Part shown: in pieces, positions 46,533 through 64,000 of the stretch | Position numbering within the stretch: the stretch's first letter is position 1 | Layout of the letters: every line of letters begins with the position of its first letter | IMG/VR virus record: IMGVR_UViG_3300032053_000004 | Coordinates: 64,001 to 128,000 of that record | Direction: 5' to 3' (one strand) | Length of the DNA: 64,000 bases | Source of the DNA: a virus | Lineage: Duplodnaviria; Caudoviricetes | Translations under genes and position numbers: made by a program | The notes under the pieces: generated by a model | The model's input: the letters and a program-made list of their open reading frames with translations, nothing else | Databases searched by the model: none | What the model was told of the DNA's origin: nothing

Positions 46533-48461
46533 TTACTTTTCTTGAGCAAATCCTCCTAGTGGGGTGACTTGCTCTTCGTCATTTATCTCGTATGGGGATA
46601 TGTCTCTTGATGGAATGAAGTCATCATCTTCAGACCCTTTCCCATTTACTCCAGGTTTTCCATAAACAGGCTGCTCTTTTTTCCCCTTAATTAATTCTTC
46701 TTCGGTTATCCAGCCTCGATTTCCCATAACATCCATATTCATTCTTAAAAATAGCATTCTGTCTTGCGATAACTCAGATCCTTCCACAAATTTAACAGAT
46801 TTCGGGTTCGGGAGAATAGACGCTAAAAACATTGATTGGCTGAGACTTAGTTGATAAGGCTCTTTCTTAAAATAATAATAGGATGCTGGTCCTATTCCGT
46901 ATAAATTCGGACCATATTCGATTATGTTTAGATAGGTTTCTATAATTTGGTCTTTAGATAAAGACTGTTCAAGCCATTTGGCTAAAACAAGCTCTTGTAA
47001 TTTTCTCGCGATGTTTTTATTTCTATCTAGCCAAAGATTTTTGGCTAATTGCATTGTTATAGTGCTTCCTCCTCGTATAAATTTCCCGAACACTAAATTA
47101 TCTCTTAAAGAACCTTCTAAGGCTTGAAATATGATCCCGCCATGCTTTCGAAACCCCGGATCTTCGAATAATCGAACTCCTAATTCTACATATGGAGACA
47201 TTTCGGATATTGGAGTCCAGTCAGATGTCCCTGGACCTACAATAACTTCTTTCGGTTTCCCGTCTGAAGAGTATATCTTATGCTTAAATGTCTTTCTAAA
47301 TCTTTTCGTATCAAGTTCTTCTGGAACTTTTGTTATACTGCAGTCTATTTTTTGTTGAATCCAAGCGTCTGATTTGCTTAATCTTCCAAAATTCTTGTAA
47401 TCATATAATATTTTTATTTTTCCTTTTATTTTTCCATCAGATTCAATCCCTTTAATTTTTTCGTTCATTCCATCGGGAATTGAGTCTAGCAAATTTTGAC
47501 AAGGAGTTTCGGGTAAATCAATTTCGAAAAGAATTAAATATTTATCCTTGCTGAAAGATATCGGTGTTTTAATTTTCATGAATTCTAACATATTATCTGT
47601 GTGTAATATTGTTCCATCTAAACTTATATGCCCTGTTGTTTCTATTTTAAATTTTGGTATATCTATGGTCTCTTTGGATAAAACCCTATGGTTTATCTTG
47701 ATCGGACCAATTTCCGCATTTGTTTTGAATTCTATTTTTTCTCCTTCATCTAATTTTAAAAATATGTTAGAATCTATAGATGTACATTCTAAATCCACAA
47801 GTTTGGGAGGATTTTCTTTTGAACATTCTTTCAATAGTTTAAAAGAGATCCCAGACTCATTCGGATTTATTGATATTTTTGCTGGTCCATAAGAATTTAT
47901 GGAGAAAGATTCAATTTCTGTTTTGAATTTAGATACTTTTTCATAAATTCTAAAAAGTTTTTCTAAATTTCTCGGTTCTTCTGATTTTTCTTTTTTCTTA
48001 GTTTTTATTGATAACTCTTTGGAATTTATAGATTTTATTTGTTTTTGATTCAATTCTATTTTTGTATTTTTTGAATTTATAACGAAAGACTCATTCTCAA
48101 ATAAAATTCTTTCCATATCTATGAATATTTGTTCTCCAATTTTCTTTATATTCCGAACATTAGTTATGAATTTTCCTCTCTTATCAGTATAAATAACCTC
48201 TCCTGCTCCTGTCTCTATATTTTGACTTGTAAAATTAATCTTTAATAGTTTGAATTTAGCGTTATTTTTATTTTTATCAAATACTTGAACATCTGATATT
48301 TTCACTTCATGCAGAGACGGCCAAGCCCACCCCATCTTTACTTCTAAATCAAATTCTTGAGCTTTTGCTTTAATTTTTGTATGAGCAAAAGAATTAAACC
48401 AAATTAAAGCGATTGATATTATTATGAATAGGAATATTGAAAACTTGATCAGTTTTTTCAC
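46533..48461 (-). CDS. membrane-anchored monofunctional peptidoglycan transglycosylase (GT51)
   Basis: N-terminal TM helix; GT51 motifs EDPGFRKHGG, GGSTITMQLAKN, RKLQE, KDQIIETYLN, LASILPNP; no transpeptidase domain; start moved to GTG 48461. Confidence 0.92.
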   Translation of the reverse strand: MKKLIKFSIFLFIIISIALIWFNSFAHTKIKAKAQEFDLEVKMGWAWPSLHEVKISDVQVFDKNKNNAKFKLLKINFTSQNIETGAGEVIYTDKRGKFITNVRNIKKIGEQIFIDMERILFENESFVINSKNTKIELNQKQIKSINSKELSIKTKKKEKSEEPRNLEKLFRIYEKVSKFKTEIESFSINSYGPAKISINPNESGISFKLLKECSKENPPKLVDLECTSIDSNIFLKLDEGEKIEFKTNAEIGPIKINHRVLSKETIDIPKFKIETTGHISLDGTILHTDNMLEFMKIKTPISFSKDKYLILFEIDLPETPCQNLLDSIPDGMNEKIKGIESDGKIKGKIKILYDYKNFGRLSKSDAWIQQKIDCSITKVPEELDTKRFRKTFKHKIYSSDGKPKEVIVGPGTSDWTPISEMSPYVELGVRLFEDPGFRKHGGIIFQALEGSLRDNLVFGKFIRGGSTITMQLAKNLWLDRNKNIARKLQELVLAKWLEQSLSKDQIIETYLNIIEYGPNLYGIGPASYYYFKKEPYQLSLSQSMFLASILPNPKSVKFVEGSELSQDRMLFLRMNMDVMGNRGWITEEELIKGKKEQPVYGKPGVNGKGSEDDDFIPSRDISPYEINDEEQVTPLGGFAQEK

Positions 48462-48474
48462 ATGAGAAAGTACA

Positions 48475-49017
48475 TCACGAAGCTGCAATTTTTGCTGCTA
48501 TGACCCGAATTTTTTCTTGAACTTCGTGGATTAAAGCAATTTTCTTTATAGAACCTGTTCTCCCCATATCGTTTATTATTTCTTTCGCAACTGATCCTAT
48601 CAGATCTGTTGTTATATACTTCTTTACGATTTTTTCAAGATATGGGTCATCTTCTTGTTCTGAAAAAGGTATTTCACTTGGTGGAACTGGTTTTGCTGCA
48701 AGTGCGTAATCGAGATCACCTTGCAGTTTTCTTACCATCAATTTTAAAGTAGAATCTTTTGGTCTAATAAAAATATCTTTAACTATTGAATTACTAATTT
48801 CGTCATCTAGTATTCTTTCCGCATCTTGACGAATTTTAACCGGGTCTTTTTGACTTTTTGCTGGCATACCTTGAGTTATATTTTGAAATATTAAATTGAC
48901 TAATGTTTCATTTAATGAATCTAAAGCGTCGTATATAGCTCCTTCTATTAATTTGGTTCCAAATTCTTTTTGAAGATAGTCTTGTAAATCGTGGCTGAGT
49001 GCAGCAATTCTTCCCAT
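48475..49017 (-). CDS. helical hypothetical protein ending in an IAAKIA motif
   Basis: Probable start ATG 49017; C-terminus RTGSIKKIA...IRVIAAKIAAS. Confidence 0.7.
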   Translation of the reverse strand: MGRIAALSHDLQDYLQKEFGTKLIEGAIYDALDSLNETLVNLIFQNITQGMPAKSQKDPVKIRQDAERILDDEISNSIVKDIFIRPKDSTLKLMVRKLQGDLDYALAAKPVPPSEIPFSEQEDDPYLEKIVKKYITTDLIGSVAKEIINDMGRTGSIKKIALIHEVQEKIRVIAAKIAAS

Positions 49018-49921: not shown

Positions 49922-50968
49922 ATGGAAGCTATTATTTGGAAACGTGGTGATTATCAAAAGTTTTACGCCAATATGAAAGTGCGTATTGGCGCTAATACTC
50001 ATAATCTTGTTGCTATTGAAGCTGGAGACGAACTTGAATATGATGGGACTATGCTCCGCTATGCTGGAGCAGAGGTTCCCCAACCTTCACTTCGTGGGGC
50101 GGTGAAGGCTGGATGGCTTTCTTCCGCTTCCGATCAACAAGGCGTCCATATAGCTACTACTAACCCAAGTAGGAACATAGCTAAAGCTCAAACAGTTAAT
50201 ACTGATCTTTCCCGAGTCCAGCGTGGAGTTCCGAGGGTTATGGAGACGGATTCTCTTGATGAAGAGACTGTTCTTCGAGTTGATGATCGCGGGCGTGATA
50301 ATGGGACTAGGCACGGGGACCGGAAAATTTTGACATCCTCGGATCGTCGTTCTGTTAGGGGCATGGAAGTACAAAATAGTGCTGATGATTCTCAAGATGG
50401 GGCCCCTGTTGGTCGTATCAGATCAGCGGCAAAAGCTTCTTTTGATGTTTCAAAAGATACTGCGTATAGCAATACGATGAGGAAGTTGAATGAGCCTGAT
50501 GCAATAGGTAAGGCTAAAATAAATAAAATTACTAGAGAAGGTGTTGAAATAACTACTAATGTCGGGAGAGTCGACCGAACAATTACGGAAGATATCGGAG
50601 ATGAAGGGGTAACCGTTGCCTCAGTCCGTCATACCTCTAGAGCATCAAGCGAAGGTATTGATATAGAGGATACTAGTGGAACTCATCGGAAAGCCGATAA
50701 GAAATCTCAAAAAGTAGAATCGTATAGAAATGAAACAACGGATCTGGTAATAAATACGAAAATCCCTGCAAGGGTTAGAATTGCTAGACACATAGACCCC
50801 AGTTTCCCGGCCAGTTGGCCCTTTGAAGGGAAAATGGCGGAGAGACTTGAACGTGTGAAGAACTATGACTCACTTTCTCCTCTTTTCCTCGAGGCTCTTT
50901 ATGCGGCCGAAGGCGATAATTTTAGGAAAGTTCTCCATACTGAATATTCAAAACAATTTCCTAAGTAA
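49922..50968 (+). CDS. hypothetical protein (globular termini, low-complexity middle)
   Basis: 348 aa; SD AAGGAGG with GTACAAT upstream. Confidence 0.8.
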   Translation: MEAIIWKRGDYQKFYANMKVRIGANTHNLVAIEAGDELEYDGTMLRYAGAEVPQPSLRGAVKAGWLSSASDQQGVHIATTNPSRNIAKAQTVNTDLSRVQRGVPRVMETDSLDEETVLRVDDRGRDNGTRHGDRKILTSSDRRSVRGMEVQNSADDSQDGAPVGRIRSAAKASFDVSKDTAYSNTMRKLNEPDAIGKAKINKITREGVEITTNVGRVDRTITEDIGDEGVTVASVRHTSRASSEGIDIEDTSGTHRKADKKSQKVESYRNETTDLVINTKIPARVRIARHIDPSFPASWPFEGKMAERLERVKNYDSLSPLFLEALYAAEGDNFRKVLHTEYSKQFPK

Positions 50969-50992
50969 ACCATTTATCGGCTCGTCTGAACG

Positions 50993-51355
50993 ATGAGCCA
51001 TAATAAAACTGCTGGCATAACGATATATATACAAGAGGAACTTTCCGACGCTCGTTTGCGTTGTGATGAACTCAAGTCTTATATTGTTAAAGCCATAAAT
51101 CTAATTCATTCTAGCGATAAGAAGGATCATATATATGCCGTAGCCGGAGATCTCGTTCATGCTGCTCCAGAAGCTTTGCTTAAACTGGAGAGAGCTCTCG
51201 AGGCTACGGCTATGGCTGTAAATAAAATGGATTATGAAGAGTTGCGCCAAATTCTTCGTCCCGAAAAAGTCGATGAACTTGAAAGAGTTTTAGATGATAT
51301 AAGAATAAATATACCCCGGAGAACTGGGGATAAAATGAAATTTAACGAGGATTGA
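50993..51355 (+). CDS. helical hypothetical protein
   Basis: 120 aa; N-terminal KTAG. Confidence 0.75.
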   Translation: MSHNKTAGITIYIQEELSDARLRCDELKSYIVKAINLIHSSDKKDHIYAVAGDLVHAAPEALLKLERALEATAMAVNKMDYEELRQILRPEKVDELERVLDDIRINIPRRTGDKMKFNED

Positions 51356-52782
51356 ACTTAGTGTATGTTTGTGGTGTGAACGAGAAAGGATTGGATAACA
51401 AATCAAAGATTAGTATTAACTGTATATGTGGAAAATTGTTTCTTATTTCGTTTAAACAGTTAAAACACAATAAGAAAATTAATAGATCAAATATTTGTAG
51501 AAGTTGTTCAATCAAAAAACTCTGGGAAAACCCTGATTATAGAATTAGGGTTAATGATTCTCTTAAATCGCTTGATAAAACACTGTTAAAACAAAAAATA
51601 TCTAAAAAATCCAAGTTAATGTGGGAAAATTCTGAATACAGGGAAAATCAAAAAAATATCCATACGAGTTCCGACTATATTAAAGAGACTTCTGAACGAT
51701 CAAAAAAACTATGGGACAATGATGATTTCAGAACAAATCAACTAAAGATAAGAAACGATCCGATTTGGATTGAAAAACAATCCAAATCTATGAAGAAACT
51801 ATGGGAAAACTCTGACTATCAAAATAGAGTTTCTAGTTCTTTATCAAAAGTTTTCATTAAGGGTTACAAGTCATCACTGGAAATAGTTACGCATAATATA
51901 CTTGAGTCCATGCATGTTCGTTTTGAAGAGCAAAAACCTTTAGGCCCTTATATTTTTGATTTTTTCTTACCAGAACATGATACTTTCATAGAATGTCAAG
52001 GTGAATACTGGCACTCAATCAAAAAGGCTTCGTCTAAAGACGCTTCTAAGTTTTCTTACTTTGAAAAATCTCGTCCTAATTCTAAAATTTTATATTTGCA
52101 TGAACGAGATTTTTTAAATCCGAAGATTGTAGAGAAAAAAATAGAAGAAATACTGAAAATTAAAATTAAAGTTGATATCGTTGATTTTTCTTTTTCTGAA
52201 GTAATACTGAAGGAGTTGGACCCTAAGATAAAGAATAAATCACACAATTCCTTACCGAAAGAATTTTTAGACTCATTCCATTATGCTCAGTTCGGTAGGT
52301 CATCCAAGGTAATATATGGAGCTTTTTTGAAAGAGAAATTAATTTCTGTTTGTAAATTTTCTACTCCTATAAGAAAAGAAGTTGCAACTTCTTTAAATTA
52401 TTCTTACTCGGAAGTTTTAGAACTCGATCGTTTTTGCATACATCCGGAGTATCAAAAGAAAAACTTCGCCTCTTGGTTTATTTCGAAGTGTATGAAAATG
52501 GTTTTTGAGAAATACTTAAAGATCAATCATTTAGTATCATTCGCTGATTCGACCTATGGACACTCCGGGGTCATATATAAAGCCGCAAATTGGAAAGAAA
52601 TTGGAAATACTAAGCCAGATTATCATTACATAAATGATGGCGGTTGGATATTGCATAAAAAAACTCTTTATAATCATGCGGTTAAAATGGGGAAAAATGA
52701 AAAAGGGTACTCATCAGAGTATGGATATAAGAAAGTATATGGAAAGTTAAAAACAAAATTTATATTTTCTCGGTTTAATTGA
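51352..52782 (+). CDS. fusion: Zn ribbon + WxNxxYR repeats + Vsr/DUF559-like endonuclease + Mom-like GNAT acyltransferase
   Basis: CICG..CRSC; LWENPDYR, MWENSEYR, LWDNDDFR, LWENSDYQ; GPYIFDFF...FIECQGEYWH; ELDRF...LVSFAD...GHSGVIYKAANW..IG. Confidence 0.8.
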   Translation: MNLVYVCGVNEKGLDNKSKISINCICGKLFLISFKQLKHNKKINRSNICRSCSIKKLWENPDYRIRVNDSLKSLDKTLLKQKISKKSKLMWENSEYRENQKNIHTSSDYIKETSERSKKLWDNDDFRTNQLKIRNDPIWIEKQSKSMKKLWENSDYQNRVSSSLSKVFIKGYKSSLEIVTHNILESMHVRFEEQKPLGPYIFDFFLPEHDTFIECQGEYWHSIKKASSKDASKFSYFEKSRPNSKILYLHERDFLNPKIVEKKIEEILKIKIKVDIVDFSFSEVILKELDPKIKNKSHNSLPKEFLDSFHYAQFGRSSKVIYGAFLKEKLISVCKFSTPIRKEVATSLNYSYSEVLELDRFCIHPEYQKKNFASWFISKCMKMVFEKYLKINHLVSFADSTYGHSGVIYKAANWKEIGNTKPDYHYINDGGWILHKKTLYNHAVKMGKNEKGYSSEYGYKKVYGKLKTKFIFSRFN

Positions 52783-52794
52783 GAATTTATTTAG

Positions 52795-53850
52795 ATGTCC
52801 AGTAATTCTCCTCGTGGTTTTATATTATCTGATGCGGCAATGTATGCGTTTGAGTGTCAAGAAGTATATCCTGATTTATTGAGTTTTGCTGTTGCAATTC
52901 CCGATCATTTAAAACAGTTATTTTTAGTCCCAGTTACGGTTGAACCGATGTCGATTGCATCGGTGGCTTCTCGTGTTGCATTTGATGATAGTGGGGCCGG
53001 ATATGAAACAGATTCGGCTGATTTGTTTGGGACCAAAACTTTTGTTGTTGAAAATGATCCGGAGCCAACCGTAACGGATTCCGACCCCGGATCTATGTTT
53101 GATATTGATGGATATTGGGGAAAGACCCATCAAGATGATGGGACGGACGAAAATTGGCAAGTCCCGTCAGACACAAGTTACATGTCTGACATTGATATCA
53201 CCAATTATTGGTCTTACCCTTATAGATCTGAAGAAAAACCTCGTCATTCTTCATTACGGCAAGTAGCATTCTTCAAATTGTCTCTTAAACCTGAGAGGCT
53301 AATTACTGAAGTCCCGAAGAAAATCAAAGAAAATGCGGAAGTTTGTTCTGTTAGTTTAGTATCATATGATAAGCGTGGTCGGATTTTTTCTTTTAAAGTT
53401 GATTGCGGGAATAAACCGAAAAATGTCCGAGCTTCTTTAACTAGTTTAAATGAAGTTGCTATGACTTGTTCTTGTCCGTTCTGGAGATGGAACGGACCCG
53501 AATTTAATGCTAAATCAAATAAATTTTTGCTAGGAAAACCTAACGGAAAGGCTTCTCCTCCGAATGTTCGTGATCCTGATCGGGAGTTTTGGCTCTGTAA
53601 GCATACTTTTGCTGTTTTAAAACGTTTAGACACTTTCGTCCAACAGATAGTTGATGAAAACTGGGGTTTGGACGATGATGATCTTCTTAGAGAAATAGAC
53701 GAAGAATGGGATAGATTAATTGCAGTTTCTGAAGAGACTTCAGAAGAACTAGAAGAAGAAAACCCAGAGATAGAAGTTAAAATTGAGGAGGAGGAACCAG
53801 AGGAGGAACCCGAGGTTGAGGAGGAACCTGAGGAGGAATTGAAAAAGTAA
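52795..53850 (+). CDS. SWIM zinc-finger protein with acidic termini
   Basis: MTCSCPFW...LCKH (CxC-xn-CxH); SVASRVA motif; Glu-rich tail. Confidence 0.8.
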   Translation: MSSNSPRGFILSDAAMYAFECQEVYPDLLSFAVAIPDHLKQLFLVPVTVEPMSIASVASRVAFDDSGAGYETDSADLFGTKTFVVENDPEPTVTDSDPGSMFDIDGYWGKTHQDDGTDENWQVPSDTSYMSDIDITNYWSYPYRSEEKPRHSSLRQVAFFKLSLKPERLITEVPKKIKENAEVCSVSLVSYDKRGRIFSFKVDCGNKPKNVRASLTSLNEVAMTCSCPFWRWNGPEFNAKSNKFLLGKPNGKASPPNVRDPDREFWLCKHTFAVLKRLDTFVQQIVDENWGLDDDDLLREIDEEWDRLIAVSEETSEELEEENPEIEVKIEEEEPEEEPEVEEEPEEELKK

Positions 53851-53869: not shown

Positions 53870-54265
53870 GTGCAATACGATTACGCTTGTTCAAAATGCA
53901 AAAACGTCCAAGAAGAAAGTTGTTCTGTAAAGGATTTTAAGGATTTCCATCCTAAATGTAATAAATGTAAATCTTCATGTAATTATCAATTTAATCCATC
54001 TGGCATACAATTTGTTTTAAAAGATGGGCCGTCCGGATCTTGGCCATCTAAAGGTAATAGGATTAAAGGACAAATGAATAAAAAGAACGATCAAATGATC
54101 CGTCGCCAACGGGATCGTTATGGTGAGGGTCAAAAAGCTATACCAAATTTTGAAGGTAAAGAAACTGAGTCTTGGAGAGAGGCTAAAAATATAGCCATGA
54201 AGGAACGCGGGGCTCAATCCGCGGCCACTTACGATAAAATCATCAAAAAAGACAAGAGAGTTTGA
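53870..54265 (+). CDS. FmdB-family zinc-ribbon protein
   Basis: YDYACSKC.....CNKC......PSGIQFVLKG-like segment, GSWP. Confidence 0.8.
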   Translation: MQYDYACSKCKNVQEESCSVKDFKDFHPKCNKCKSSCNYQFNPSGIQFVLKDGPSGSWPSKGNRIKGQMNKKNDQMIRRQRDRYGEGQKAIPNFEGKETESWREAKNIAMKERGAQSAATYDKIIKKDKRV

Positions 54266-54290: not shown

Positions 54291-54932
54291 ATGGCTAGAA
54301 TTTTTAGTGTTTACAGGCGTAAAAATAAGTTAGTTGACTTGAATTGGCCTTATCGGCCGGGTGTTGCTAGCTATCGAATGAAATTTGCTGGTAATTTTGA
54401 CGGGGTATTTGCTTTATTTGAGACCGTTTCCTTAAATGGAAAACAATCTTTAACCGTCCTAAATAACGGTTATACTGATAATCAATTTCGTGGTAAAACG
54501 AGATTTTTATTTAATCCAGATGATTATACAGCTTCTGGGTTGGATGATACCAAACCAATGTATATAAAGTTAGCCCCGGTAGATTTTGCTGGAGTCATCG
54601 GGGCTGACGAGGCCATGCAGTTAATTCTTCCATACAGCCCGGAGCCGAATCGAGCTTTGGTTTTGAATGGAAATGCTCCTACTCCAGGCCCTCTTGAAAT
54701 TCAACTCCCAATGCTTGTCCATAATATGATATTTACAAATTTAGACCCTGCCAACGTACTTAACGTTTCTTTTGAACCGACCGGTCCTGTATATGAAATT
54801 GGACCTTTGGCTACTACTAGTTCCATATATCCTTCAATATATCCTAACGCTAGTCAATTATTCATATCTGGAGCAGGTGGGGTCGTACCCATTAACGTTC
54901 TAGCATCGATCAGAAATAACCCAACCACTTGA
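54291..54932 (+). CDS. putative virion structural protein
   Basis: 213 aa, beta-rich, start of the structural cluster. Confidence 0.6.
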   Translation: MARIFSVYRRKNKLVDLNWPYRPGVASYRMKFAGNFDGVFALFETVSLNGKQSLTVLNNGYTDNQFRGKTRFLFNPDDYTASGLDDTKPMYIKLAPVDFAGVIGADEAMQLILPYSPEPNRALVLNGNAPTPGPLEIQLPMLVHNMIFTNLDPANVLNVSFEPTGPVYEIGPLATTSSIYPSIYPNASQLFISGAGGVVPINVLASIRNNPTT

Positions 54933-59156: not shown

Positions 59157-62100
59157 TTGTCAGTAGACAACCCAAGAGGTGCAAGAGGCTTTATCGGACC
59201 GACAGGCCCGGCTGGATCGACAGGTCCAACGGGCGCTATTGGGCCTGTCGGTACTCAAGGCTCTCCGGGTGCTCCTGGTCCAACTGGTCCAACTGGTGCT
59301 ATTGGTCCTATTGGTACTCAAGGTGTTACTGGGCCTCAAGGATCTCCAGGCCCCACAGGCCCGATAGGTCCGACAGGTCCGACAGGTCCGCAGGGTTCAC
59401 CTGGTTCACCTGGTTCCACTGGATTGATTGGACCTCAGGGGTCTCCTGGTTCACCTGGTCCCACAGGGCCTCAAGGTTCTCCCGGTGTAACCGGTTTAAC
59501 CGGAGCAACGGGTCCTCAAGGTTCCCCTGGTTCCCCTGGTTCCCCTGGCCCCACAGGACCTCAGGGATCACCTGGATCACCTGGCCCCACTGGACCTCGA
59601 GGAACTCAAGGGTCACCTGGTCCAACAGGACCACAGGGGTCTCCTGGTTCCCCCGGCCCCACTGGTGTAACAGGGCCTCAGGGCTCTCCTGGTTCCCCCG
59701 GCCCCACTGGACCCCAGGGTTCTCCTGGCCCCACTGGACCTCAAGGATCGCCGGGTAGTCCTGGTCCAACTGGACCACAAGGTTCACCTGGTTCACCTGG
59801 TTCACCTGGATCACCTGGCCCAACTGGCCCACGTGGTTCTCCCGGTTCACCTGGTTCTCCCGGTTCACCTGGTTCTCCCGGCCCCACTGGACCCCAGGGT
59901 TCTCCTGGCCCCACAGGGCTTCAAGGAACCCAGGGTTCACCTGGTTCTCCTGGACCAACTGGACCAACTGGACCCCAGGGTTCTCCTGGCCCTACAGGCC
60001 CTCAGGGTTCTCCAGGTTCTCCTGGCCCAACTGGTCCTACTGGACCCCAGGGATCACCTGGCCCCACTGGACCCCAGGGTTCTCCTGGCCTGCGTGGGGT
60101 TACTGGAGCTACCGGTCCAACCGGAGCGCGTGGCCCCACTGGACCAACGGGGCCAGTTGGACCAACGGGGCCTCAGGGTTCTCCTGGTAGTCCCGGTCCT
60201 ACTGGTCTGCAAGGCCCGATAGGATCCCCTGGTCCAACCGGTCCTCAAGGTTCTCTTGGATCCCCAGGTCCCGCCGGTCTACAAGGGCCGGTTGGTTCAC
60301 CTGGATTAACTGGACCTCAAGGCCCTCAGGGTTCTCCTGGCCCAACAGGACCAACAGGACCAATTGGTCCTGTACCTTCTTTTTATCCTGCTCCTGTTAG
60401 TACAGCTGTCTTTTCTGGTTTTCAGGCTACACATTCAATATTCACTTCAATTCCTAGCTCTTATATATCTTTAAATTTAAATTCTGAAGCTGATATTATT
60501 TCTTTCTTAAATGTTGCTATTGATTCTTCTGGTGGATCGGTAAACAACACTCCAATAATAAGAATTGTTATCGATAACATACCTGGACCCGAATTTCAAT
60601 TATTCAACGCAAACGCTCAACCTGAAAATTCTTCGGCGGCTTATGTTCTTCGTCGTCCTGCTGGCGTTCACACTTTATGGGGAGAGTGGCGTCGCTCGGC
60701 TGGTAATCGAGTTATGGTTTTGGAGAATGGCTCTCTCGTAGCTTTCTCCAATCAAGGGGTTCAAGGAGCGACTGGCCCACAAGGGCCAACCGGTCCCGCA
60801 GGTGCAACCGGTTCCCAAGGATTAATAGGTTCTCAAGGATTCCAAGGTTCTCCTGGTCCTATTGGACCTCAAGGTGCAACAGGACTGGTCGGACCGACAG
60901 GACCGATTGGTTCTCCAGGCCCGACAGGTCCTCAAGGTGCAACTGGTTTAGCAGGTGAAACTGGTCCTATCGGTCCTCAAGGAACTCAAGGAACAACAGG
61001 AACTCAAGGAGCAACAGGTGTCCAAGGCGTAACTGGATCGACAGGTCCTCAAGGCTCGATTGGTTCCCAAGGATCACCCGGGCCACCTGGTCCAACTGGT
61101 GCCCAGGGTGCAACTGGTGCCCAGGGTGCAACTGGTGTCCAGGGTGCAACTGGATCGACAGGTCCTATCGGTCCACAAGGAACTCAGGGTTCTCCAGGGC
61201 CAACCGGTCCGCAAGGTTCTCCAGGATCAACTGGTGCTGCAGGGTCTACGGGTGTTACAGGACCGCAGGGAAACCCTGGCTCACCGGGTCCTACTGGTCC
61301 AACCGGTCCTCAGGGTTCTCCCGGTCCGACTGGACCTCAAGGATCACCAGGTTCAACCGGACCACAAGGTTCCCCTGGTTCTCCAGGATCGACTGGCGCA
61401 GCAGGTTCCACAGGTCCTCAGGGTTCCCCTGGCTCACCTGGCCCCACTGGACCTCAGGGTTCCCCTGGGTCTCCAGGTCCGACTGGTCCTGCTGGGTCCA
61501 CTGGTGTTACTGGGCCCCAAGGCTCACCGGGGTCTCCAGGACCAACAGGTCCTCAGGGTTCCCCTGGGTCTCCAGGTCCGACTGGTCCTGCTGGAGCCAC
61601 TGGAGCCACGGGTCCTCAGGGCTCTCCAGGTCCTACAGGCCCAGTGGGTCCGACTGGAGTAACTGGGGCCACAGGGCCACAGGGTTCACCTGGTTCTCCA
61701 GGGCCAACTGGCGCACCGGGTCAGACCGGGGTTACTGGACCTCAAGGTTCACCCGGTCCGACTGGTCCTCAGGGTTCACCCGGTAGTACAGGACCAACAG
61801 GTCCTCAGGGTTCCCCTGGCTCACCTGGCCCCACTGGACCTCAGGGTTCCCCTGGGTCTCCAGGTCCGATTGGTCCTCAAGGTTTCCCAGGCTCACCAGG
61901 TCCAACTGGCGCCGCTGGCCCCCAAGGAAGTCCAGGTTCTCCAGGGCCAACTGGCGCAGCTGGGCCTACCGGTGTTACAGGTGCGACTGGGCCTCAAGGT
62001 TCACCTGGGTCTCCTGGCCCCACAGGCCCTCAAGGCTCACCTGGCCCCACAGGCCAAGCTGGTGCTACTGGCGCTCAAGGAAGCTCCGGATCCCCAGGGC

Positions 62101-64000
62101 CTACAGGAGCAGCAGGTCCAACAGGTCCAACAGGTTCCATCGGTCCTCAAGGAACTCAAGGAACTCAAGGTTCACTTGGCTCCCCAGGCCCAACGGGACC
62201 TCAAGGCTCCCCTGGACCGACAGGTCCCCAAGGTCTCACGGGTGTAACTGGTCCACAAGGCTCACCAGGTCCAACTGGTGCAGCAGGTTTTACTGGGGTT
62301 ACTGGACCTCAGGGTTCACCTGGTCCCACCGGTCCGGCAGGGCCTACTGGCGTTACGGGGCCTCAAGGTTCTCCTGGTCCGACTGGCCCACAGGGTTCTC
62401 CAGGAAGTCCTGGACCCACGGGAGCAGCAGGTCCAACCGGAGTTATTGGAGCCACTGGGCCTCAAGGTAGTCCTGGACTTACGGGACCGCAGGGCTCACC
62501 CGGTCTTACAGGTCCTCAAGGAAGTCCAGGCTCCCCAGGTCCAACGGGTCCTGCTGGATCTACTGGAGTAACGGGAGCAGCTGGCCCCGCAGGTGTCACT
62601 GGTGCAACTGGTCCTCAGGGTAGTCCAGGAAGTCCTGGGGCTACTGGACCTCAAGGATCACCTGGATCGCCAGGACCTACTGGACCTCAAGGCTCCCCAG
62701 GCTTGCCTGGCCCGACTGGACCTCAAGGCTCACCAGGCAGTCCGGGATCGCCTGGCCCTACGGGGCCACAAGGTAGTCCTGGTCCAACAGGACCACAAGG
62801 CTCACTTGGTTCTCCGGGCCCAACAGGTCCCCAGGGATCTCCTGGTAGTCCAGGTGTAACTGGAGTGGCCGGGCCTATTGGTGCAACTGGAGCTACTGGT
62901 CCTCAAGGCTCCCCCGGTCCTACTGGTCCTCTTGGATCTCCAGGTCCCATTGGACCTCAAGGGTCTCCTGGATCACCTGGCCCCACTGGTGCTGCGGGTC
63001 CACAAGGGTCTCCTGGAAGTCCAGGCCCCACTGGAGCAGCTGGCCCCACAGGTGTCACTGGTGCGACTGGGCCTCAAGGCTCACCTGGGCCACAAGGACC
63101 TCAGGGAACTCAAGGTAGCCCTGGTCCCACTGGGCCTCAGGGCTCACCAGGCTCGCCTGGTCCCACTGGAGCTATTGGAGCTATTGGAGCCACTGGTCCT
63201 CAAGGCTCCCCCGGTCCTACTGGTCCTCAGGGATCACCTGGCCCCACAGGCCCCTTAGGTAGCCCAGGAACACAGGGATCCCCAGGCTCGCCTGGTCCTA
63301 CTGGTCCACAGGGCTCTCCAGGACCTACTGGTCCACAGGGAAGTCCAGGTAGCCCTGGACCAACGGGTGCTGCTGGACTTACTGGTGTTACAGGCGCTAC
63401 TGGTCCACAGGGCTCTCCAGGACCTACTGGTCCACAAGGTTCACTAGGTAGTCCTGGTCCAACCGGTCCTCAGGGTAGTCCGGGATCAGCGGGGCCTCAG
63501 GGTTCGCCAGGACCAACCGGACCTCAAGGAGCAACTGGACCGCAAGGTTCAACAGGGCCACAAGGATCTCTTGGATCCCCAGGACCAACTGGGCCTCAGG
63601 GATCACCAGGACCAACTGGTATAGCTGGCCCCACTGGTGTCACAGGAGCAACTGGACCTCAAGGGTCACCTGGGTCCCCAGGTCCGACTGGTCCTCAGGG
63701 ATCACCTGGTAGCCCTGGACCAACCGGTCCGCAAGGTTCCCTTGGATCCCCTGGACCAACGGGAGCTGCTGGAGCCACAGGTGTCACTGGAGCCACTGGA
63801 CCTCAGGGTTCTCCGGGTCCAACCGGACCTCAAGGTTCTCCAGGTTCACTTGGCCCCACTGGGCCTCAGGGTAGCCTGGGTCCCACAGGGCCACAAGGTA
63901 GCCCTGGTTCTCCAGGTCCAACTGGCCCTCAAGGATCACCAGGAAGTCCTGGTCCTACAGGAGCAGCTGGCCCTACTGGTGTTACCGGTGCCACAGGCCC
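59157..64000 (+). CDS. very long collagen-like fibre protein with an internal globular domain (3'-truncated, missed by the ORF track)
   Basis: Frame open from TTG 59157 ([16 protein letters not shown]..) and still in Gly-X-Y phase at base 64000; about 128-aa non-collagen beta domain at 60375-60755. Confidence 0.93.
59178..60374 (+). repeat. collagen Gly-X-Y block 1 (about 133 triplets)
   Basis: Gly codons at 59178 and 60366 are 1188 nt = 132x9 apart; GPT/GPQ/GSP dominate. Confidence 0.95.
60756..64000 (+). repeat. collagen Gly-X-Y block 2 (at least about 360 triplets)
   Basis: Gly codons at 60756 and 63960 are 3204 nt = 356x9 apart. Confidence 0.95.

Follow-up and report, generated by a model that had tools for sequence, protein, structure and literature searches.

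A nuclease-Mom fusion gene with a natural empty allele in a jumbo phage

Single-chain enzymes of Type IIG/IIC, such as MmeI and BcgI, hold nuclease, modification and recognition functions in one polypeptide, with a methyltransferase that depends on S-adenosylmethionine (SAM) and a target recognition domain (TRD). To our knowledge, Mom is the sole enzyme that hypermodifies DNA with a charged tRNA, and the enzyme of phage Mu alone has been studied. Fusion of a Mom domain to a nuclease of the restriction endonuclease (REase) fold was described in group 2 jumbo phages in the computational study of Iyer, Anantharaman, Krishnan, Burroughs and Aravind (2021; Viruses 13:63; PMC7824862) and read as a restriction-modification analogue; the nuclease-Mom fusion as such is already known, by prediction only. 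Here we describe one such gene at positions 51352-52782 (+) of a 64,000-nucleotide stretch of phage DNA, hereafter the window, which comprises bases 64001-128000 of a 202,143-bp IMG/VR virus record (IMGVR_UViG_3300032053_000004) with a CheckV completeness of about 47%. The open reading frame (ORF) encodes 476 amino acids (aa) from a TTG codon, with a zinc ribbon and W repeats followed by an EDxHD/Vsr-like nuclease and a Mom-family GNAT domain, and the gene is either present or precisely absent at one intergenic slot of otherwise identical genomes. An original prediction, made from the sequence of the window, had proposed a homing-endonuclease-like module fused to a Mom-like domain and had rated the novelty of the fusion too highly, Iyer et al. 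having described it.

Two characterized enzymes provide the reference points for the catalytic domains. I-Bth0305I (catalytic domain, 3r3p), an intron-encoded homing endonuclease, is the enzyme after which the 'EDxHD' family is modeled as prototype (Taylor et al. 2011, PMC3239194); it cuts both strands as a homodimer, and Vsr is a nicking enzyme (PMC3239194). Mu Mom, whose anti-restriction role is established, moves glycine from Gly-tRNA(Gly) onto N6 of deoxyadenosine (dA) in double-stranded DNA at SAS motifs (PMC13219725). The account of Mom in the original prediction, a GNAT-fold enzyme that hypermodifies adenine and protects against restriction, is correct but dated in that the donor is now shown to be Gly-tRNA(Gly), not acyl-CoA (PMC13219725).

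Presence and absence of the gene at one intergenic slot

The gene sits between two genes of unknown function, one of 120 aa (50993-51355, +) and one of 351 aa (52795-53850, +), and its overlap with the former is 4 nt, while 12 nt separate its end from the latter. An identical public protein is called at 473 aa, a length consistent with initiation at GTG 51361. Since an Rfam scan of 50800-53000 gave chance-level matches only, with no group I or II intron, the gene is free-standing and not intron-borne.

A precise empty allele was found in three sediment metagenome runs (X19, X20 and X23), the contigs of which join position 51351 directly to 52803, and a loose contig end in a fourth run (X21) agrees. 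The segment missing from this natural allele, 51352-52802 (+), measures 1451 bp and is replaced by 11 nt (AGAGAAATGAA). The empty-allele contigs show 0 mismatches over 952 nt upstream, and their only downstream differences fall in an acidic repeat at a distance of about 1 kb. Absence was scored from gap-bridging contigs only, with parts of the gene that lack contig cover in X19-X23 left uncounted; X19 also holds a low-depth contig from within the gene, indicating that both alleles are present in that sample. Reconstruction of the junction shows that both neighbor genes are intact in occupied and empty alleles alike and differ in their last or first codons, the upstream C-terminus reading KFNEEEK in the empty allele versus KFNED in the occupied one and the downstream N-terminus MNNSPRG versus MSSNSPRG. 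The upstream stop in the empty allele overlaps the downstream start (ATGA), giving the junction a native look. Genomes that are otherwise identical either carry the gene at this one intergenic slot or lack it precisely, and it behaves as a mobile gene.

The slot can also be recognized in more distant genomes. On a 182,739-bp contig of a syntenic relative (L004), orthologs of the two flanking genes (64% and 60% identical) abut directly and the slot is empty, with a 621-aa nuclease-Mom paralog (33% identity) encoded two genes downstream at L004:7558-9423. This paralog lies between orthologs of a 131-aa gene (53870-54265; 53%) and a 213-aa gene (54291-54932; 36%) of the window, where the counterpart of its site is a 25-bp spacer, and the two contigs therefore form a second, reciprocal pair of occupied and empty sites. 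The closest homologs among the matches listed, P0003 (53%) and P0004 (49%), fill this slot in two further relatives, L092 and L094, respectively, with flanking genes that are 68% and 54% identical in the former and 55% and 50% in the latter. Across 76 IMG/VR loci, relatives of the gene have 63 different neighbor pairs, and the neighbors that recur are core genes (sigma-factor-like, tail sheath, prohead protease/portal and baseplate-like). A patchy yet site-faithful distribution, intergenic placement beside conserved genes and the presence of multiple copies together form the pattern of free-standing phage homing endonuclease genes. The notion of a selfish element, included in the original prediction, gains support from the natural empty allele, the empty slot in L004 and the same-slot orthologs in L092 and L094.

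These observations bear directly on the alternative put forward by Iyer et al. (PMC7824862, section 3.4.7), according to which the protein would be a single-chain restriction-modification analogue serving as a weapon: Mom would mark the whole phage genome, the nuclease would degrade unmodified DNA of the host or of a superinfecting phage, and mobility would be incidental, with no homing to a specific empty site. Precise presence and absence at one slot, the recurrence of orthologs there in diverged relatives and the coexistence of gene-less strains with carriers in one sample all argue against such a weapon, which we regard as somewhat unlikely, although several features of the Mom domain and of the wider family, considered below, speak for it.

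Catalytic domains, arm and family

Residue conservation was counted over 39 family members, and a whole-protein AlphaFold2 model built on their alignment has a mean pLDDT of 90. The nuclease domain (51865-52155, +; aa 172-268), predicted to be an EDxHD/Vsr-like PD-(D/E)XK enzyme, carries E177, D203, E214, Q216, H221, D230 and K233. A profile of the 39 nuclease domains searched against the PDB matched 3r3p with an E-value of 7.1e-15 over 96 positions, with the DUF559-like 3hrl at 0.007 and Vsr at 0.26, and Foldseek, run with the domain modeled by itself (pLDDT 89), placed 3r3p first (TM 0.84 by target) and then the Vsr-DNA structure 1cw0. The Vsr/DUF559-type assignment of the original prediction agrees with these matches, DUF559 (PF04480) itself falling just below its curated threshold at 17.8 bits for the whole protein and 20.1 bits for the domain alone versus a cut-off of 20.6. 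MTES_1575 (PF18741) is likewise below the Pfam threshold; relatives give sub-threshold matches to DUF559, Vsr (PF03852) and MTES_1575, and one of them (P0013) rises above the DUF559 cut-off. The domain is a member of the Vsr-like group but fits none of the three models.

D203, E214, Q216, H221 and D230 match, respectively, I-Bth0305I D196, the conserved acidic residue found where Vsr has F62, N208, H213 and D222. In turn, D196, N208, H213 and D222 are equivalent to Vsr D51, H64, H69 and D97 (PMC3239194). D203 and H221 align to Ala in 3r3p because that domain was crystallized as a D196A/H213A mutant. Motif positions are kept in 32-39 of the 39 members (D203 in 39, E214 in 38, Q216 as Q, N or H in 39, H221 in 38 and D230 in 38), K233 and G217 are invariant, and about two thirds of members, as read from the alignment, have Glu at E177, the counterpart of I-Bth0305I E170. 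A two-copy self-association run (ESMFold2-based) scored 0.00, a result that weighs neither way. By profile and Foldseek, then, the nuclease falls in the EDxHD homing-endonuclease family, consistent with the 'homing-endonuclease-like' label first given to it, and the fact that its nearest characterized relative is a homing endonuclease and not a restriction enzyme is a further argument against the restriction-modification weapon.

The likeness of the C-terminal domain (52189-52779, +; aa 280-476) to Mom, also proposed at the outset, is well supported. Pfam PF25680 matches aa 303-450 with an E-value of 2.5e-23 (83.3 bits versus a cut-off of 27.1; 86 bits in the genome scan), PHROG 1384 'Mom-like DNA modification protein' matches at 1.9e-27, and phmmer reaches Mu Mom (8bv8) directly at 4e-8. 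In Foldseek, the top PDB match of the full model is again 8bv8 (E 9.6e-12; 212 aligned columns, 222 target residues), ranked above generic GNATs, and the Mom-specific insertion, resembling a helix-turn-helix (HTH), is present in the model. The ELxR and SFAD...GHxGxIYxAxNW motifs are present with most of their residues family-invariant, and the most conserved motif of the family is the region of W432 and HKKT (435-438), the latter invariant. Residues that matter in Mu Mom are H58, Y59, R111, S124, D149, R151, Y159 and W181 (PMC13219725, 2026 numbering; PMC7261163, from 2020, numbers them 10 lower), and their counterparts here are H310, Y311, R360, S374, D399, T401, Y409 and W432. Thus seven of the eight are kept, all but R151; H310, Y311, R360, S374, D399 and Y409 are invariant in 39/39 members, and W432 is aromatic (W/Y/F) in 36/39. 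The domain is accordingly Mom/GNAT-like with its catalytic residues in place, save for one Mu-specific Arg.

That Arg is replaced by T401 here, and the R151A variant of Mu Mom is inactive. Standalone Mom-like proteins of Bacillus phage SerPounce, Listeria phage LP-114 and halovirus HGTV-1 have the form D-S-(T/S/G)-x-G-H-x-G-x-I-Y, without the Arg, and a second paralog in the 202-kb record keeps a Mu-like Arg. This distribution indicates that the Arg marks the Mu lineage and not the Mom family, and the combination of T401 with H404 is probably no defect of this protein. The substitution nonetheless lends something to a reading in which one domain acts otherwise, either with the Vsr-like part only nicking or binding DNA to aid modification, much as Vsr itself nicks, or with the GNAT targeting a non-DNA substrate such as charged tRNA, as TacT-type GNAT toxins do; the substrate choice of GNATs is not predictable from structure (PMC13219725, discussion). 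We judge this reading highly improbable, as the full EDxHD residue set is conserved, the closest relative with a solved structure, I-Bth0305I, breaks both DNA strands as a homodimer, and the domain keeps both the invariant HKKT and the Mom-specific insertion, which in Mu Mom is placed in the DNA major groove by an AlphaFold 3 (AF3) model (PMC13219725).

N-terminal to the nuclease lies a presumed DNA-binding arm. It opens with a C4 zinc ribbon (51406-51513, +; aa 19-54), correctly identified in the original prediction, whose C24, C26, C49 and C52 are kept in 37-38 of the 39 members; the model shows two beta-hairpin strands, and the Pfam scan returned a weak Zn_ribbon_CSL match. The helical repeat array that follows (51499-51861, +; aa 50-170) forms eight consecutive helices at residues 50-169 of the model. 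Four to five WxNxxYR repeats had been proposed, and the repeats are real, with four canonical motifs at W58 (WENPDYR), W91 (WENSEYR), W121 (WDNDDFR) and W151 (WENSDYQ) and degenerate units between. Over 699 units from 178 relatives, the spacing is most often 17 residues and the consensus is S-x3-K-x-L-W-x-(D/N)-P-E-(Y/F)-R-x-K, with 0 to 14 canonical units per relative. Long arms with as many as 14 units point to targets that are long and rare, which would suit a restriction-like weapon poorly.

The arm of this protein is common to other homing-type nucleases, being found also C-terminal to GIY-YIG nuclease domains, one of them named 'group I intron endonuclease' by its source, and N-terminal to a DUF559 nuclease without Mom. 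A search with residues 1-290 alone, limited by its word index, returned few proteins and shows that Mom-less and GIY-YIG relatives of the arm exist, not how frequent they are. In the metagenomic proteins P0245, P0246 and P0244, the 17-residue WxDPEYR array is carried by GIY-YIG endonucleases and a Mom-less DUF559 nuclease, and this array is an undescribed module without a Pfam model. Pfam scans of the protein gave no match to NUMOD, the arm consisting of the zinc ribbon and W repeats. 'GerD', 'STI1' and similar Pfam labels on relatives fall on the repeat region and were rejected as spurious. For the N-terminus, a Protein Atlas feature search suggested a tentative link to DUF7487 clusters (score <=0.90), for which Pfam scans of the region gave no confirmation.

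The fusion proved to be widespread. A phmmer search of 1.84 billion cluster representatives gave 3257 matches at E<=1e-3 and at least 400 clusters (50% identity) at E<=1e-30, and among the matches listed the repeats, nuclease and Mom domain are all spanned; with at least 400 such clusters, the architecture is far beyond chance. All 120 proteins listed from a word-indexed search carry PF25680, many on contigs of 170-430 kb and several sharing one contig. In IMG/VR, relatives are encoded by at least 565 of the 598 candidate stretches, and many jumbo contigs have two or three copies. No GenBank phage was matched by megablast of the locus, and tblastn against cultured phages matched the Mom part only, with no full-length match. 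PHROGs already files this architecture under phrog_559 'HNH endonuclease' and phrog_3339 'homing endonuclease'.

The arm is the variable component. The 202-kb record has two Mom domains, both nuclease-fused, the second in a 596-aa protein encoded outside the window (G000:C1:171083-172873; L002:577-2367) in which three DUF4379 treble-clef zinc fingers replace the W repeats and precede an MTES_1575-type nuclease and then Mom. The L004 paralog begins with yet another zinc ribbon. A stable nuclease-Mom core is thus joined to DNA-binding arms that are interchangeable. For the restriction-modification weapon, a core fused across hundreds of diverged clusters behind different arms is a favorable finding, several paralogs per genome could represent several specificities, and a genome-wide mark is plausible since about 20% of dA is modified by Mu Mom acting alone at a short SAS motif.

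Proposed coupling of homing to modification

The explanation we favor, and hold to be about evenly balanced between right and wrong, is that homing and Mom modification are coupled, making the gene a free-standing, site-specific mobile endonuclease gene of a jumbo phage and its product a selfish element that would 'cut and protect' with a single chain. In a co-infected cell, the arm would direct the nuclease to the empty junction or a nearby site in a relative without the gene. Cutting there would use Mg2+ and a general base supplied by His, following the proposal made for Vsr and I-Bth0305I, and recombinational repair from the carrier genome would copy the gene into the cut relative. The Mom domain, attached to this DNA-binding arm as well, would by analogy with Mu place an aminoacyl group on N6 of adenine in double-stranded DNA, and this mark would shield carrier DNA from the protein's own nuclease and possibly from host restriction. 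The outcome would resemble a Type IIG restriction-modification enzyme with momylation replacing methylation. Given that arms are exchanged but nuclease and Mom remain in one chain, we take both activities to be coupled on the same sites, with Mom modification predicted to block the protein's own nuclease.

Coupling is the point at which a homing gene with uncoupled cargo would differ, the nuclease in that case driving mobility only and Mom being a passenger that gives general anti-restriction as in Mu, with no role in self-immunity. Insertion of the gene disrupts its own target, so self-protection would be unneeded, Mom-less proteins of repeats plus nuclease and standalone Mom both exist, and the anti-restriction role has a firm precedent in Mu. 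A separate gene would do for such cargo, however, yet the domains form one chain in every close relative listed, the nuclease-Mom core survives arm swaps, both Mom domains of the 202-kb record are nuclease-fused, and a Mom domain tied to a site-specific arm would be ill suited to protecting a whole genome. We therefore find uncoupled cargo decidedly unlikely. The restriction-modification weapon and the uncoupled cargo depart from the favored explanation chiefly in which DNA the nuclease would cut and in whether momylation would stop it.

Several points weigh against coupled homing and protection. No co-conversion tract is visible beside the insertion in the empty-allele contigs, and the contig data are equally consistent with gain or loss of the gene. 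In L092 and L094 the divergence of the gene is roughly equal to that of its flanks, a pattern that would also fit long vertical residence with occasional loss. As the insertion itself splits the empty-allele junction, the home site would be immune without need of Mom. The Mu R151 position is Thr in 37/39 members, and for this T401 branch of Mom, the common form in cultured phages, no characterized enzyme was identified. Finally, the restriction-modification-analogue reading of Iyer et al. overlaps with the one favored here.

A bolder form of coupled homing and protection, which we think unlikely as a whole, would make the family the first homing-type element with its own epigenetic immunity, in which the arm steers both a double-strand cut and an aminoacyl adenine mark and the arrays of 0-14 W units form a modular DNA reader that sets both specificities. 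If true, such elements could invade without need of target-site polymorphism and would amount to natural retargetable enzymes for site-specific DNA hypermodification; if the arm is modular, the proteins might serve as site-directed DNA-modifying tools. More immediately, hundreds of jumbo-phage Mom domains are joined to a homing-endonuclease module, here in a gene whose presence at a precise site varies within wild phage populations. This offers a concrete, testable system for asking whether a selfish nuclease can bring its own chemical immunity, how one DNA-binding arm couples the specificities of modification and cleavage, and what influence such elements have on where recombination boundaries fall in huge phages. 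With occupied and empty junction sequences both known, cleavage and protection experiments can be designed directly.

Genomic setting and comparison with known systems

The phage of this record was found again in many sediment metagenomes, and its window has a GC content of 35-40% and mostly unannotatable genes. The fusion gene is at 30% GC, below the 37-44% of its neighbors, but its third-codon-position GC (GC3) is the same as theirs (28% versus 30%); recent foreign origin by base composition was accordingly rejected, the low GC being explained by a protein rich in Lys, Asn and Ile. Promoter and terminator scans gave sites no more numerous than in shuffled sequence. The 351-aa downstream gene has no match in Pfam or PHROGs, and with its orthologs it shares a conserved C-x-C ... 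C-x-H pattern (CSCPFWRW ... WLCKH) that resembles a SWIM-type zinc finger. Its acidic, Glu/Pro-rich C-terminal tail is polymorphic in the population, with a 24-nt repeat-unit insertion at 53799 in three runs and, in one run, 363 other letters replacing 312 nt of the tail (53504-53817).

Further upstream, 46533-48488 (-) encodes a 651-aa protein with a peptidoglycan glycosyltransferase domain (Transgly, PF00912; E 1e-44), an enzyme of cell-wall synthesis and not lysis, which is kept in the same place in the relatives L092 and L094. The first called gene of L092 and L093 (1-129, cut) adjoins the Transgly gene and is Acb1 / 2',5'-RNA-ligase-like (2H phosphoesterase); a function of anti-CBASS type is possible. 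At the end of the window, an ORF that spans 1614 aa or more (59157-63998) and has no 3' end within it is full of collagen triple-helix repeats (PF01391, E 2e-225) and accounts for the 50-63% GC there, and the candidate explanation of foreign DNA in this high-GC region was rejected on that ground.

Placed beside known systems, the protein resembles Type IIG/IIC enzymes in that cutting and protecting share one DNA-reading part in a single polypeptide. It differs from them in having a GNAT aminoacyl/acyl transferase with repeat or zinc-finger arms and, by Pfam scan, no methyltransferase domain, and the two share no sequence kinship beyond the PD-(D/E)XK superfamily. With phage Mu Mom (8bv8) it has in common the GNAT fold, the Mom-specific insertion and seven conserved key residues, at about 20% identity. 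The R151 position is Thr here and is followed, at a distance of three residues, by a conserved His, a state shared by most Mom-like proteins from cultured phages. Mu Mom, in contrast, is a standalone protein of 231 aa from a temperate phage and is under elaborate regulation.

I-Bth0305I shares with this protein a homologous catalytic domain, the conserved motif residues and a DNA-binding region N-terminal to the nuclease, and the EDxHD family to which it belongs includes free-standing phage genes, as here. Unlike the present gene, I-Bth0305I is intron-encoded, binds through NUMOD/HTH elements and has no modification domain, whereas this gene is free-standing and encodes a zinc ribbon and 17-residue W-repeat arm before the nuclease and a Mom GNAT after it. 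The free-standing homing genes of T4-like phages (seg, mob; Hef) are likewise intergenic beside conserved core genes, patchy among close relatives and multi-copy, but their GIY-YIG, HNH or EDxHD nucleases come without a DNA-modifying domain. The closest match in architecture is provided by the fusions of Iyer et al., which pair modification with cutting through a Mom-family GNAT and a nuclease of restriction-endonuclease fold, also in jumbo phages. Their paper says only 'REase fold', and Vsr/EDxHD homing endonucleases, mobility, empty sites and variable arms are absent from it. What is new relative to that work is the EDxHD assignment, the swappable arms shared with GIY-YIG endonucleases and the evidence for mobility, including the natural empty allele.

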